DNA from: Candidatus Latescibacterota bacterium
Lineage (GTDB): Bacteria; Latescibacterota; UBA2968; UBA8231
Direction: 5' to 3'
Assembly (NCBI GenBank): GCA_965248355.1
Contig: OZ252098.1
Span: 3,488,001-3,552,000 of the forward strand
DNA length: 64,000 nt
This document shows, piece by piece, positions 42,001 to 45,000 of this stretch (its first letter is position 1; each line of letters starts with the position of its first letter). Position numbers: made by a program.

Positions 42001-45000
42001 CGACCACCTGCTGGCGGTGGTGCCCCGCTTCGGGCTGCGCGTCTTTCAGGAGCCGGCGGGGTCGGATTTCGCGGCCCTTGCACACATCGACGCCGCGGGC
42101 ATAAGGTAGGGCCCGAGGAACGGACGTACGGCCCAAGGAGTCTGAGCGGGGTGAGATGAGAGCATGAGAAGGAGCCGCCACAAGACCTTCGAGGTGTACG
42201 CCGTCCCAGGGCGGCTGTTGGCCCTGGCCATCCTCGGTCTGGGGCTCCTCCTCCCGGCGGAGGCGCCCGCGGCGTCGAAGGCCCAGTTCACCCTGCCGGC
42301 CATCGACGGCGAGCAGTTCTCCCTGCGGGAAGCGCTGAAGGAGGGGCCGGTGGTCCTCGACTTCTGGGCCACGTGGTGCAAGCCCTGCATCAAGGGGCTG
42401 CCCAAGCTGCAGGAGATCGCCCAGGAGTACGGCGAGCGCGGAGTGGGGGTGTACACCGTGAACGTCGACGGACCCCGCAATCAGCCCAAGGTGAGGCCCT
42501 TCCTGAAGCGCCACCGGCTGGAGCTGCCGGTCCTGCTCGACCACTCGAGGCAGGTGATGAAGCAGTTCCAGATACCCGCGGTTCCGGCGACCATGATCAT
42601 CTCCACCGAGGGCGAGGTGGTGTACAAGCACTTCGGGTACAAGCCGGGAGACGAGATCCGCCTGCGCGCCAGGCTGAAGGAGTTGCTGCAAGAGGCTGAA
42701 ACCGACTCCACGAAAGGGGGAGCCGATGAGGGTTAGAGGTATTCTCCGGAAGGGGCGGGTCGCCTGCGCGGCCATCGCCCTCACCGCTTCACACATGGGC
42801 GGAGCGAGCGAGGCCGAGGCCCAGGCGACGGCCGGCGACCCGGCCCCCGCCTTCGAGCTCGAGACCGTGGACGGACAGCTCGTGTCGCTTGGTGACTTTC
42901 TCGGCGAGAAGGTCGTCTACATCAACTTCATCGGGAACACCTGACCGTTCTGCATCGCGGAGGCCGCGAGTTCCGAGGCAATATGGCAGAACTACGGGAG
43001 CGATGGCTTCACCGCCCTCGGCATCGATCTGTGGGACGCGAGGGCCTCCAACGTCAAGTCCATCTGGGTCGACGACGGCCTGGCGTCCTACCCGATGCTG
43101 GTCAACGGCTCGGGGGTGGCCCGGGACTACGGCGTGGTCCAGGACTACTACTTCGTCATCGATCACGAGGGGATCGTCCGTTACCGGTCGCCCGACGCAA
43201 GGCTTGGGAACCGCTTCAATGACGGGGAGATCCGCGATGCCATCGACGATGCCCTGGCCGATCTCGCCGCCGCCCTGGAGGTCGTCGAAGTGGAGGAGGA
43301 GCCGGAGGTGATCACGGCGGTTTCGTCCGCCCCCCAGGTGCCCGACGGGTTCGAGCTGGGCGCCTATCCGAATCCCTTCAACGCGGAAACGACCCTCTCC
43401 TTCACGGTGAGCACGGCGGGCCCGCTGGTCCTGACCCTGTCCGATCTCCAGGGGCGCATCCTGCGCGACTGGTCCGGACACTACGGGACCGGGAGCCACT
43501 CCCTGACCTGGGACGGACGCGGCGAGAGCGGTGAACCCGTCGCCTCCGGGGTCTACGTCGCCACCGCGCGCCAGGGGGCCGCGGCCATCACCCGAAAGGT
43601 CACCCTGCTGAAGTAGGGAGGAGCGGTCCCGCTCCTACAGCACCTTGCTGATCAGGCGCAACTCGAGGCCCTCGAAGCCCAACACCTCGTAGCAGCTGCC
43701 CCCGGTGCAGGCCAGCCCCGTCCTCCGCCGGCCCGCAAAGGCGTCCAGCGTGTGGGCCTCGCGGAACCTCCAGCTGGCGCCGAGAGCCCCCCAGTACGTC
43801 GCCCCCGACTCCGAGGCCCCGGCCTCCAGGGGGTCGTTGGACCTCTGCAGCTGCAGCGACCACGTCCACGCCGGATAGCGGCTGACCTCCACGATGGCCA
43901 GCAGGTTCTCGTGGGGGAACTCACTCCGGCCGAAGCGCCGGTCCACGTCCTGCAACTGCAGGTCGGCGCTGACGGCGTGGCGCCCGCCGGCGGACCACTC
44001 CCAGCGCGTGCCGGCGGTCAGGCGCCGCTCGTTCTCGAGGATGCGGTTGCGCGTATAGTCGAGGAACAGCTGTCCGTGGAGGACCTCGCCCACCGGGGAA
44101 TCCAATTGCAGGAAGTACTCCCGCAGCGACTTCTCCTCGCCGGGGCGCGAACCCCGGCGGGTGGCCAGGTTCCAGGCGGCGATCAGCCCGACCTGGCGGG
44201 GCAGGGCCCAGGTGAGCTCGGCCTGGACCCCGGTCTCGTCGTCGGCCAGCAGGGCGTGGGTCTCCCGGTTGAGCAGGAAGGCCTCGTGCTCCCGGATCAG
44301 GGTGGGCGGGTTGTTGATGCTCGCAAAGGCGAAGTCGTGGTAGTCCTTCCGTTCCAGGCTCAGCCCCCAGTCCCCGCCCGTCAGGGTGGCGGCCAGGTAG
44401 AGGGCCCGCGGGCGCTTGCTGTCCAGGGAGAACCAGCGGCCCGGGGCGGGATCGAGCTGGGCGTACTCGCCGTAGAGATCGCCGTACCAGCCACCCAGTC
44501 CGAGCCCTTCCAGGAGCGACCCGAAACGGAACTCCCCATGGGTGGTGGCGGCCAGCTCCTCGCGCCCGTCGAAGGAGAACTCCATCAGCGCCGCCCCGAT
44601 CTCGATGTCGCGGCTCAGGCGGGCGCCGACGGCCCCGCCGGAAACGCGGCCCCGGCGCCGTTCCAGACCCTTCAGCCCGGGGGCCAGCTCGCTGTTCACG
44701 GGGGTGCCGCGCAGCCACAGCACGTCCACCTTCCCCCGCCGGGCGCGCACCTCCACGCCATCAAGGTCGCGCACGATCTGGTAGCGGCGGCGGGCGACGC
44801 GGTCCTCGGTGACGACGCCCGGAAGCTCGAAGGCGTGCAGGAGGAGTCCGCGGCCCACCAGGGTGTAGAAGTGTCCGGCCGTCGCCTCGAGGCCGCCGTG
44901 CCGGTAGGAGAGGGATCGCTGCGCGAGGTGAGCGTAGTCCCGGCCGTCTCCGCTGGAGCGGAAGGCCTCGCTTCGGGCGCTGGCCAGGAATCCCGAGGAC

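Follow-up and report, generated by a model that had tools for sequence, protein, structure and literature searches.

What does a gene encode when its reading frame is crossed by a single TGA and its closest database relatives all begin after that codon? The question is raised by a locus on contig OZ252098.1 of a Candidatus Latescibacterota bacterium, within a stretch of 64,000 nucleotides that was analysed as a whole (the window; positions count from its first letter). We give a probability of roughly 0.75 to the reading that window positions 42726-43616 form one gene for an exported, selenocysteine-containing thioredoxin-like enzyme with a type IX secretion system (T9SS) tail. Its parts were assigned as follows.

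42713..42722, + strand: Shine-Dalgarno-like purine-rich stretch AAAGGGGGAG, closely 5' of the ATG at 42726, read from the sequence
42726..43616, + strand: predicted selenoprotein gene, a single 296-codon open reading frame (ORF) with an internal in-frame TGA
42726..42821, + strand: ATG start and N-terminal Sec-type signal peptide, predicted for residues 1-32 (inspection and hydropathy window)
42834..43295, + strand: thioredoxin-fold catalytic domain, ResA/CcmG/TlpA-like, residues 37-190, active site T-U-P-F-C (Pfam, NCBIfam, AlphaFold, Foldseek)
42942..42944, + strand: in-frame TGA, predicted selenocysteine, residue 73, first position of a CxxC-type motif (conservation in homologues)
42955..42969, + strand: putative bacterial SECIS element, a hairpin whose loop AGG is closed by the 6-bp stem UCGCGG/CCGCGA; distance from the U, 13 nt
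43296..43364, + strand: linker, acidic, residues 191-213 (low model confidence, pLDDT <50, continues to residue 220)
43365..43613, + strand: C-terminal sorting domain of T9SS type A (TIGR04183), residues 214-296; contains YPNPFN and WDGR and ends in K-V-T-L-L-K

The survey's finding had described a 273-codon gene starting at ATG 42795 and had flagged the N-terminus and signal peptide as unsettled. We moved the start 69 nt further upstream, to ATG 42726, because a signal peptide is present only in this longer form of 296 codons and because each of the 22 homologues whose 5' end is complete has an equivalent start, 56-72 codons ahead of the U; the upstream ATG also settles the doubt about the signal peptide. 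The latter is composed of a basic n-region, the hydrophobic stretch VACAAIALTA and A-E-A preceding Q33, as judged by eye and by a hydropathy window, and the AlphaFold model of this region has a pLDDT <50. Signal peptides were recognised, by inspection and hydropathy only, in 22/22 homologues with a complete 5' end, and a Shine-Dalgarno-like word lies ahead of the equivalent start in most homologues.

Public annotation cuts the gene at the internal TGA. All 46 closest database proteins are post-TGA fragments of 162-231 aa that cover 55-74% of the query, as the earlier description of database homologues had it, and the annotated public ORFs begin at differing internal Met codons in different species. 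Because public databases contain nothing of the whole family but post-TGA fragments, which take their name from the sorting domain, selenoproteome surveys miss it. Two RNA libraries of a single study yielded contigs that span both the TGA and the junction with the upstream ResA-like gene, although RNA-library contigs can contain DNA. Among sequencing runs, 16 (of unlabelled kind or guessed to be DNA) hold at least half of the sampled words; two runs labelled sponge metagenome hold only 6-9% of them, which supports no habitat conclusion.

Coding on both sides of the TGA, as previously claimed, was borne out by the Pfam families AhpC-TSA (PF00578, 59.9 bits against a gathering score of 26) and Redoxin (56 bits), whose matches at residues 36-156 cross codon 73. 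PF00578 also takes in TlpA-like proteins, for example, the product of the neighbouring ResA-like gene (85.7 bits). At the level of narrower families, the predicted selenoprotein resembles ResA, DsbE and TlpA only as members of one superfamily: it scored 37 bits with NCBIfam ResA (NF002854, cut-off 170), 26.1 bits with DsbE (TIGR00385, cut-off 123), 29.9 bits with CcmG-type DsbE (NF011941, cut-off 359) and 15.6 bits with TlpA (NF047696, cut-off 230). The ResA and DsbE matches had already been called weak, and at 37 and 29.9 bits both are indeed far under their cut-offs. The AlphaFold model has a pLDDT of 84-98 over residue blocks 31-180, and Foldseek placed it with ResA (1su9_B and 2f9s_A, TM 0.84-0.85) and CcmG (3k8n and 2b1k), with the 1-Cys peroxiredoxin AhpE (1xxu, TM 0.82) as its top match. 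According to the model and the motif alignment, the C/U-x-x-C motif lies at the N-terminus of helix 1 of the thioredoxin fold. The proposed thioredoxin-fold UxxC selenoprotein is thus upheld by a domain that spans the TGA, by ResA- and CcmG-like fold matches and by the U in a G-x-x-U-x-x-C motif.

The alternative that survives best, though we consider it unlikely, keeps the selenium and changes the chemistry: the protein would be a selenium-dependent peroxidase (peroxiredoxin- or GPx-like) at the cell surface rather than a protein-disulfide reductase. AhpC-TSA is its best Pfam family and AhpE its top fold match; moreover, selenols react quickly with peroxides, and no extracellular reductant is obvious. 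The active site argues for the reductase. In peroxiredoxins, the peroxidatic Cys sits in a conserved P-x-x-x-T/S-x-x-C motif, whereas here this arrangement is absent, the spacing from T72 to C76 is wrong, and the residue before the U is not conserved (T, N, S, G or I across homologues). Additionally, the U occupies the N-terminal position of the CxxC motif and aligns with the W-C-K-P-C of the neighbouring ResA-like protein, the ResA and CcmG structures match equally well or better, and the linked partner is itself ResA-like.

Behind the catalytic domain, the linker varies in length among homologues and is repeat-expanded in one of them. The tail matched TIGR04183 over residues 214-292 of 296, at 29.5 bits rather than the 29.8 first reported but still over the cut-off of 23. 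It also matched FlgD_ig (27.9 bits, cut-off 27), and with PF18962 it reached 15.9 bits, below the cut-off of 27. The tail was modelled as a beta-sandwich (pLDDT 90.1), for which DUF3244 and FlgD were the best fold matches and PorU (6za2_A, TMq 0.66) and PorZ (5m11, TMq 0.61) ranked 8th and 17th. The genome holds 100 paralogous copies of the sorting domain, 96 of which end within 6 codons of the stop. It also holds SprA (605.8 bits summed) and two PorU genes (556.9 and 543.8 bits), one of which adjoins a PorV-like gene that scored 157.8 bits against a cut-off of 250. For the GldL/GldM motor, the genome gave no match to TIGR03517, TIGR03513 or the GldM_1st model PF12081, which does not imply absence, as these models are built on Bacteroidota; in control genomes, TIGR03517 and TIGR03513 matched none and PF12081 two, below its cut-off. 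The tail is missing in 7 of the 23 homologues whose C-termini were read, and the tail-less proteins bear other extracellular-type modules (dockerin-like DFDGDG repeats); in some family members, other extracellular anchoring modules thus stand in place of the sorting tail.

These data bear on a second alternative, which we hold to be slightly less probable than the peroxidase: a real selenoprotein that stays in the periplasm or at the inner face of the outer membrane, its tail being a structural or adhesive Ig-like (FlgD-type) domain. The usual workplace of ResA/TlpA relatives is the periplasm, and their electrons come there from DsbD/CcdA-type proteins. The low PF18962 score, the FlgD_ig match just over its cut-off, the DUF3244 and FlgD folds, the undetected motor, the PorV-like score below its cut-off and the tail-less homologues would all fit such a location. 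Against it, TIGR04183 is over its cut-off, the position of 96 in 100 domain copies close to the stop, in proteins of all sizes, is the signature of a sorting signal, SprA and both PorU sortases exceed their cut-offs, and the dockerin-like modules of the tail-less homologues suggest an exposed location. The earlier prediction of a secreted protein is backed by the signal peptide, TIGR04183, SprA and the two PorU genes, but PorV is under its cut-off and GldL/GldM were not found. Both the secretion and the function of the selenoprotein are inferred, and "secreted" is less secure than "selenoprotein".

The TGA at 42942-42944 is the sole in-frame TGA of the ORF 42726..43616. Among 25 homologous ORFs from 23 loci (L011-L033), 24 have the U aligned within the motif G-x-x-U-x-x-C, while the flanking residues vary. 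A search of 168 genomes of the phylum (matches at E<=1e-15) returned 78 homologue matches from 55 genomes; 76 of these matches contain exactly one TGA, 75 of the 76 have no other stop, and the homologues range down to ~35% identity. The TGA is also kept in all 31 closest public loci (>=40% identity), and its conservation across genera, as first noticed, is thereby confirmed. Four congeners carry the gene with one TGA, at 78-81% identity and not the 79-82% given before. Two homologues are without the TGA, and in the one that was read (G038) a Cys replaces the U. The family also occurs in relatives labelled Caldithrix, Krumholzibacteriia and Handelsmanbacteria; in public records, relatives are filed sometimes under Latescibacterota and sometimes under Gemmatimonadota.

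The selenocysteine machinery is complete, in line with the survey: tRNA-Sec, selA (557 bits), selB (343 bits) and selD (354 bits) are present and all exceed their curated cut-offs, and selD contains a TGA of its own. Among relatives, selA was found in all 22 that carry the gene, and the gene in none of the six without selA. TGA is also a normal stop in this genome, following 19 of 54 sorting-domain ends. By reading through the TGAs upstream of 110 sorting-domain matches, we found no other T9SS-tailed selenoprotein in the genome: 19 of the matches had a TGA on their 5' side and an open frame of fewer than 400 codons ahead of the domain, and only in this gene was the U in a redox-like context. 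On this evidence, the UGA at codon 73 is best read as selenocysteine, placed where the CxxC-type motif has its first, nucleophilic residue.

The candidate SECIS hairpin gave a mixed picture. The bacterial SECIS consensus of Zhang and Gladyshev (2005) is reportedly a stem-loop just 3' of the UGA with a G in the apical loop. Of 22 distinct homologue sequences, 20 had a stem of at least 6 bp starting 10-16 nt after the U, compared with 407 of 5016 codon positions elsewhere in these ORFs (8.1%). The recurrent hairpin follows the U by 12-13 nt, which is the usual site of bacterial SECIS elements; at least six different stem sequences occur at this place, with the loops AGG, GGG, GGC, CGUGC and GUC. 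In the alignment, 87% of the helix cells are paired, with changes on both sides in two of six pairs. Three four-fold-degenerate wobble positions in the stem have an entropy of 0.36 bits, compared with 1.38 bits for 30 other such columns, and only 3 of 5456 triples are as low. Meanwhile, the hairpin in the GC-rich gene itself was no more stable than in synonymous recodings (z -0.19), and across homologues no more than 5 of 22 sequences reached p<0.05 in the same test. Comparison of the 75-nt fold around the TGA with shuffles (z -0.75) was uninformative in a genome of 69% GC, RNAalifold on a 24-sequence alignment predicted other, weak pairs and did not recover the hairpin, and Rfam over window positions 40000-46000 (E<=10) gave chance matches only and no SECIS family. 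The claim of a conserved hairpin 13 nt after the U thus stands as to its recurrence in 20 of 22 sequences, but it found no support from RNAalifold, Rfam or recoding of the gene itself. Because the Cys paralogue in G038 retains a near-identical hairpin, its conservation may be partly coding or due to recent ancestry. The worry that the conservation is merely coding, raised at the outset, is partly answered by the unusually fixed wobble positions of the stem, whereas this paralogue and the recoding result feed it.

It is very improbable that the UGA is read without selenium, as Cys, Trp or another standard residue, because a near-cognate tRNA decodes it or because the code has changed locally. 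A UGA followed by C, as here, is a leaky stop context, and the Cys in G038 would suit this reading; it is opposed by the complete machinery and the co-occurrence of the gene with selA, by the position-fixed hairpin with its wobble constraint after the UGA, and by the many other genes that end in TGA. Least probable of all is a true stop, which public gene callers assume and the normal use of TGA in the genome would allow, leaving a pseudogene or two genes (a 72-aa N-terminal peptide and the annotated 173-aa ORF): one thioredoxin domain spans the TGA and neither half would fold alone, the codon is fixed in 76 of 78 homologues with next to no other stops, and the annotated ORFs start at varying internal Met codons between species, which refutes this reading as far as sequence allows.

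The gene is flanked by two others and by a short repeat.

42164..42736, + strand: Cys-containing ResA/TlpA-like thiol-disulfide oxidoreductase, W-C-K-P-C, with its own signal peptide (Pfam, NCBIfam)
43619..43636, no strand assigned: 8-bp inverted repeat AGGAGCGG / CCGCTCCT between two convergent stop codons
43635..45185, - strand: DUF6029 protein, 516 aa, signal peptide, predicted outer-membrane beta-barrel (PF19494, 57.6 bits)

The linkage and co-occurrence of the selenoprotein gene with a Cys-type ResA-like gene and a DUF6029 barrel is new. The stop of the ResA-like gene (NCBIfam ResA 96.1 bits, below the cut-off of 170) overlaps the selenoprotein start by 11 nt, and a homologue of it adjoins the selenoprotein gene in 15 of the 23 loci; DFWATWCKPC is invariant in 14 ResA-like homologues. 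The DUF6029 gene is convergent with the selenoprotein gene and is present in 18 of the 23 loci. In family f1, 19 genomes hold both the selenoprotein gene and DUF6029, one holds the selenoprotein gene only, 16 hold neither and none holds DUF6029 only. Linkage of all three genes was traced down to ~30% identity (L126). On the other hand, family f2 has the ResA-like and DUF6029 genes without the selenoprotein gene, and many selenoprotein paralogues are unlinked. The inverted repeat at 43619..43636 is possibly a terminator shared by the convergent genes. In the accessible text of one paper, some Wzi-barrel homologues are described as similar to DUF6029 (PMC9603273).

If the main reading, an exported selenocysteine enzyme with a sorting tail, is correct, its life might run as follows. 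SelB and Sec-tRNA would decode the UGA, aided by the downstream hairpin. The signal peptide would lead the chain through SecYEG to the periplasm, where the thioredoxin domain would fold, and the type A sorting domain would pass the protein to the SprA translocon. PorU/PorV would then cut off the tail, after which the enzyme would be either surface-attached or free. There, the selenol of U73 might attack a disulfide (or a peroxide), and C76 would resolve the intermediate into a selenenylsulfide; the protein would thus be a fast thiol-disulfide oxidoreductase acting outside the cytoplasm. Its probable partners are the ResA-like Cys protein of the periplasm, whose gene would be co-transcribed with its own, and the DUF6029 barrel of the outer membrane, because both are linked to and co-inherited with the selenoprotein gene.

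A bolder extension, which we regard as quite doubtful, makes the three proteins one envelope redox module, in which the ResA-like protein, the DUF6029 barrel and the surface UxxC enzyme would carry reducing power to the surface. The ResA-like protein would be reduced from the cytoplasm and the selenoprotein would be the outer, surface-exposed end, so that the module would do with thiols and selenols what the MtrCAB conduit does with haem. Selenocysteine would then be obligatory because the outermost member must act fast and resist over-oxidation beyond the reach of reductases. Such a module is compatible with the linkage of the three genes, with the joint gain and loss of the barrel and the selenoprotein gene in family f1 and with the replacement of the tail by other anchoring modules in some members; the f2 genomes and the unlinked paralogues count against it.

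In the accessible text of two reviews, known bacterial selenoproteins are treated as intracellular redox enzymes (PMC9312934, PMC13188914). A selenocysteine enzyme routed to the surface raises two questions, namely, what reduces it there and what its substrate is; the candidates for the latter are host or prey disulfides, peroxides, and metals and metalloids. The scarcity of Cys versions and the tight linkage to the ResA-like protein and DUF6029 make this a testable three-gene module, and the linkage is a first functional clue for DUF6029, an uncharacterised outer-membrane barrel.

As a kind, the protein is not unprecedented: catalogues have listed TlpA-like selenoproteins with a UxxC motif since 2005, as the "Thiol-disulfide isomerase-like protein" family tabulated by Zhang et al. 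2005 (PMC1088965), again in a table of a 2022 review (PMC9312934) and as cd02966 in a 2026 review (PMC13188914). Going by those descriptions only, the present protein shares with them a TlpA/ResA-type fold, selenocysteine in the first position of UxxC, and prediction from metagenomes by a conserved in-frame TGA aligned with Cys. Unlike that family as described in these sources, the present one is nearly selenocysteine-only (76 of 78) and has a T9SS tail. None of the accessible passages of these sources refers to a signal peptide, to secretion or to a sorting domain, and the accessible text of the 2026 review (PMC13188914) does not mention T9SS either. Literature searches linking selenoproteins or selenocysteine to type IX secretion, and Gemmatimonadota to type IX secretion, returned no related work in the records and text that were accessible. 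Two NCBIfam models, NF045500 ("Omp28-related selenoprotein", GOS_C) and NF041054 ("ResA-like WAxxUGC"), likewise describe exported thioredoxin-fold selenoproteins of uncultured bacteria. The protein belongs to neither: NF045500 gave no match at E<=1, and NF041054 gave 21.4 bits against a cut-off of 300, the motif here being G-x-x-U-x-x-C and not WAxxUGC.

With ResA of Bacillus subtilis, CcmG/DsbE of E. coli and TlpA, the protein has in common the fold, the place of the redox motif and export, whereas those proteins use Cys, are membrane-anchored or periplasmic and are without a sorting tail. It differs from Bacteroidota T9SS cargo in belonging to another phylum, in the selenocysteine of its active site and in the lack of a detected PorL/PorM (GldL/GldM) motor. 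It nevertheless shares the layout of type A cargo of Bacteroidota, in which the signal peptide is followed by a functional domain, then by a linker and a C-terminal beta-sandwich sorting domain of ~80 residues (TIGR04183), and HBP35 of Porphyromonas gingivalis, a T9SS cargo with a thioredoxin motif, also has a thioredoxin-like domain joined to such a tail.

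Under the standard code, the region holds a 72-codon ORF (42726..42944) ending at a TGA and, in the same frame, a 173-codon ORF (43095..43616). When the TGA is read as selenocysteine (U), 42726..43616 becomes a single open frame of 296 codons with U73 as the sole recoded codon, and its product is very probably a selenoprotein (probability roughly 90%). The survey's finding had placed the start at ATG 42795, but this codon is the internal M24. ATG 42726 is preferred because it is preceded by the purine-rich stretch AAAGGGGGAG, because the N-terminus read from it (MRVRGILRKGRVACAAIALTASHMGGASEAEA|QA) is a typical signal peptide as judged by eye and hydropathy, and because each of the 22 homologues whose 5' end is complete has an equivalent N-terminus from a start 56-72 codons before U. 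An ORF that starts here shares 11 nt with the end of the gene upstream, stop codon included. The order of the genes is as follows.

Gene order around the selenoprotein gene
HrpA, minus strand
MscS channel, plus strand
42164-42736, plus strand, ResA-like Cys gene, paired with the DUF6029 gene
42726..43616, plus strand, selenoprotein gene
43635-45185, minus strand, DUF6029 barrel gene, paired with the ResA-like gene
CysNC, minus strand

Additionally, an 8-bp inverted repeat (AGGAGCGG/CCGCTCCT, 43619-43636) lies between the convergent selenoprotein and DUF6029 stops and may be a terminator shared by the two genes.

The genome, one 5.5-Mb contig with 68.9% GC, encodes tRNA-Sec (anticodon tca), adjoining selB (343 bits) and selA (557 bits) genes, and selD (354 bits; G000:C1:4976879-4977802, outside the window). 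Because selD itself has one in-frame TGA, the selenophosphate synthetase that it encodes is predicted to contain Sec. The genome has not reassigned TGA: the stop following sorting-domain copies aligned to the last residue (n = 54) was TGA in 19, TAG in 28 and TAA in 6. Another TGA precedes a sorting-tailed ORF (G000:C1:3095820-3096104, minus strand), and upstream of it the frame is open for a further 771 codons; this TGA has the non-redox context DPMEUEEIY and may be due to chance in a GC-rich genome.

The TGA was highly conserved. Across 60 relatives from the same class, all listed matches covering the N-terminal domain carried one TGA, with one exception. The motif G-x-x-U-x-x-C was found in 24 of 25 ORFs from 23 extracted homologous loci (L011-L033), the remaining ORF having GYSCKYC, and the residues around U varied (NTUPFC, FNUPFC, YGUDFC, HSUPAC, YNUGTC and others). 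When only the thioredoxin domain was used as query (E<=1e-15), 55 of the 168 genomes of the phylum that were searched gave matches; 76 of the 78 matches had one TGA, one of them together with a TAG, and two had none. Moreover, selA was present in all 22 relatives carrying the selenoprotein gene, and the gene was absent from all six relatives without selA. A public scan of one genome per species of bacteria and archaea returned 80 loci, and U was present in all 31 with at least 40% identity. Among the more distant loci, U-x-x-C stood in the same setting in five and a W-U-P-x-C motif was present in two; the rest were ordinary W-C-x-P-C ResA/TlpA proteins from Firmicutes and others, plus two without such a motif. 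Among close relatives, the public label is now Candidatus Latescibacterota, now Gemmatimonadota/Gemmatimonadetes; the labels Handelsmanbacteria, Caldithrix, Krumholzibacteriia and Planctomycetota occur at single loci. Two loci labelled Blastocatellales and Heliomicrobium (L132 and L136) belong to a redoxin-like group with an in-frame TGA in Y-W-U-P-[YW]-C, probably a separate selenoprotein family. In two relatives, a selenoprotein paralogue with a TAG besides the TGA (G017:C1:4136423-4137235) and a DUF6029 gene broken by TAG and TAA (G021:C95:6525-7765) are possible pseudogenes or assembly errors.

The gene at 42726..43616 is a genuine selenoprotein gene that is mis-annotated publicly. The nearest 46 proteins in the database (162-231 aa; query coverage 55-74%; E 5e-118 to 7e-21) all start downstream of the TGA, and the few with a name are entered either as 'T9SS type A sorting domain-containing protein' or as 'hypothetical protein'. 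No full-length entry was present in the database search, which spanned 162-518 aa.

A hairpin, UCGCGG-AGG-CCGCGA (42955-42969), starts 13 nt after U, and at least six other stems occupy the same place in homologues (UCUCGGA/UCCGAGA, CUCUCG/CGAGAG, AUCGCGG/CUGCGGU, CUCGCGG/CCGCGAG, UAACGGACG/CGUCCGUUG and GGCGG/CCGCC), with loops of AGG, GGG, GGC, CGUGC or GUC. An unbroken stem of at least 6 bp starting 10-16 nt after U was found in 20 of 22 distinct sequences, compared with 407 of 5016 other codon positions in the same ORFs; the 22 sequences are kin, so a binomial treatment overstates the case. In a fixed-register alignment, 87% of hairpin cells were paired, and changes on both sides occurred in two of six pairs. 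The survey had feared that the stem owes its conservation to coding, here of I-A-E-A-A. Against this, the wobble columns were unusually fixed: at codons +4 to +8 of 19 representatives, the third positions were C in 9/10 Ile, G in 12/12 Ala, G in 9/9 Glu, C in 14 and U in 3 Ala, and G in 11/12 Ala, whereas the third-position entropy of other conserved Ala/Gly columns was mostly 1.3-2.0 bits. The mean wobble entropy of the three four-fold stem columns was 0.36 bits versus 1.38 bits for the other 30, and only 3 of 5456 triples were as low. The fear keeps some force from a Cys paralogue in one relative (G038), which retains the hairpin of its Sec neighbour. The minimum free energy differed weakly from that of synonymous recodings (mean z -1.05; p<0.05 in 5/22; in the window gene, which is GC-rich, z was -0.19), RNAalifold did not recover the hairpin, and no Rfam family matched it. 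The hairpin is a probable, not a proven, SECIS element.

Metatranscriptome contigs from two libraries of one study (X17 record 2, 42652-43059; X18 record 6, 42350-43033) span the ResA/selenoprotein junction and the TGA. Their source strain is approximately 94-96% identical. The X18 contig has 29 differences, 23 of which are listed; none of the listed ones fell in the TGA or the stem, one fell in the loop and five in the flanks. As RNA libraries can hold DNA, these contigs are weak evidence of transcription across the junction and the TGA.

The Pfam matches to AhpC-TSA (59.9 bits) and to Redoxin (56 bits), at residues 36-156, span the TGA; those to FlgD_ig (27.9 bits) and, below cut-off, to Por_Secre_tail PF18962 (15.9 bits) cover the C-terminus. 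In NCBIfam, TIGR04183 (T9SS type A sorting domain) scored 29.5 bits (cut-off 23), the ResA, DsbE and TlpA models matched weakly and far below threshold, NF041054 did not reach its cut-off (21.4 bits vs 300), and the curated selenoprotein model NF045500 had no match. In an AlphaFold model built with a 36-row alignment, the thioredoxin-fold domain is modelled with confidence (pLDDT 84-98 over blocks 31-180), the acidic linker at residues 191-220 is disordered, and the tail is a beta-sandwich. In one homologue (L022 1048-2058, minus strand), the linker is expanded by about eight AADAQA-type repeats. The best solved fold matches were ResA (1su9_B and 2f9s_A, TM 0.84-0.85), AhpE (1xxu, 0.82) and CcmG. 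Disulfide-exchange chemistry is favoured because the alignment puts U opposite the first Cys of the W-C-K-P-C motif of the adjoining ResA-like protein and because the peroxiredoxin T/S-x-x-C spacing is absent; a peroxidase function is a live alternative.

The selenoprotein likely leaves the periplasm through a sorting-domain pathway. Its tail contains YPNPFN, WDGR and a terminal K-V-T-L-L-K, and the tail domain has 100 paralogous copies in the genome (E<=1e-3), 78 ending exactly at the stop and 96 within 6 codons. About 100-110 proteins of this genome have a sorting-type tail; in a single case among the 100 copies (G000:C1:4949875-4950156, minus strand), the domain is followed by 1141 open codons with no stop. 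The tail model (pLDDT 90.1) best matched DUF3244 and FlgD folds, with PorU and PorZ tails ranking 8 and 17. The genome encodes SprA (605.8 bits summed) and two PorU proteins (557 and 544 bits), one directly followed by a PorV-like gene under its cut-off (157.8 bits vs 250). Neither GldM (TIGR03517) nor GldL (TIGR03513) was matched in the genome by these Bacteroidota-built models, which matched zero control genomes, nor was the first GldM domain (PF12081), a Bacteroidota-built model that two control genomes matched below cut-off. These negatives do not show that the proteins are absent. SprA and two PorU without detected GldL/GldM suggest, given such models, a T9SS with a divergent motor or none.

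Of the C-termini read in 23 homologues, 16 were sorting tails, two dockerin-like DFDGDG repeats, two short tails and three other ends, including that of the 445-aa L033. Dockerin-like repeats also occur in the more distant member of the family from G052. The T9SS tail is replaced in L029 (1444-2136), L032 (1483-2163), L044 (2501-3400, minus strand), L030 and L031, the replacements being two dockerin-like DFDGDGxVxFxDFFLFA repeats, a further domain plus such repeats, or a short tail with SWGxxKS at its end. C-terminal modules appear to be exchanged while the Sec domain stays constant, and exchange among extracellular anchoring modules would fit an exposed location.

The ResA-like Cys gene is conserved as a pair with the DUF6029 barrel gene. 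Within flanks of at most 1.5 kb, a ResA-like homologue was found at 15 of the 23 loci L011-L033 and DUF6029 at 18. Among 36 family-f1 relatives, 19 had both the Sec gene and DUF6029, 16 had neither, none had DUF6029 only, and one, 85% complete in 980 contigs, had the Sec gene only. ResA and DUF6029 occur without the Sec gene in family f2 (two loci examined, L043 and L046), and all three genes occur together in one family-f4 genome as well as at L126, a public locus with 30% identity; many extra Sec paralogues of the U-S-H-C type are unlinked. Some plug-less Wzi-barrel homologues are described as resembling DUF6029 by HHpred, with a suggested role in polysaccharide export (PMC9603273).

A UxxC TlpA-like selenoprotein family appears in the tables of PMC1088965, PMC9312934 and PMC13188914. 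The main texts of the 2026 review, BSepDB and deep-Sep do not mention T9SS, secretion, signal peptide or Gemmatimonad, and those of BSepDB and deep-Sep do not mention 'sorting domain' either; their supplements may list members. A full-text literature search that combined selenoproteins or selenocysteine with type IX secretion turned up no apparently related paper. UxxC TlpA-like selenoproteins are known; compared with this catalogued family, what is new in the window gene is its T9SS tail, its linkage to ResA and DUF6029, and its nearly Sec-only occurrence.
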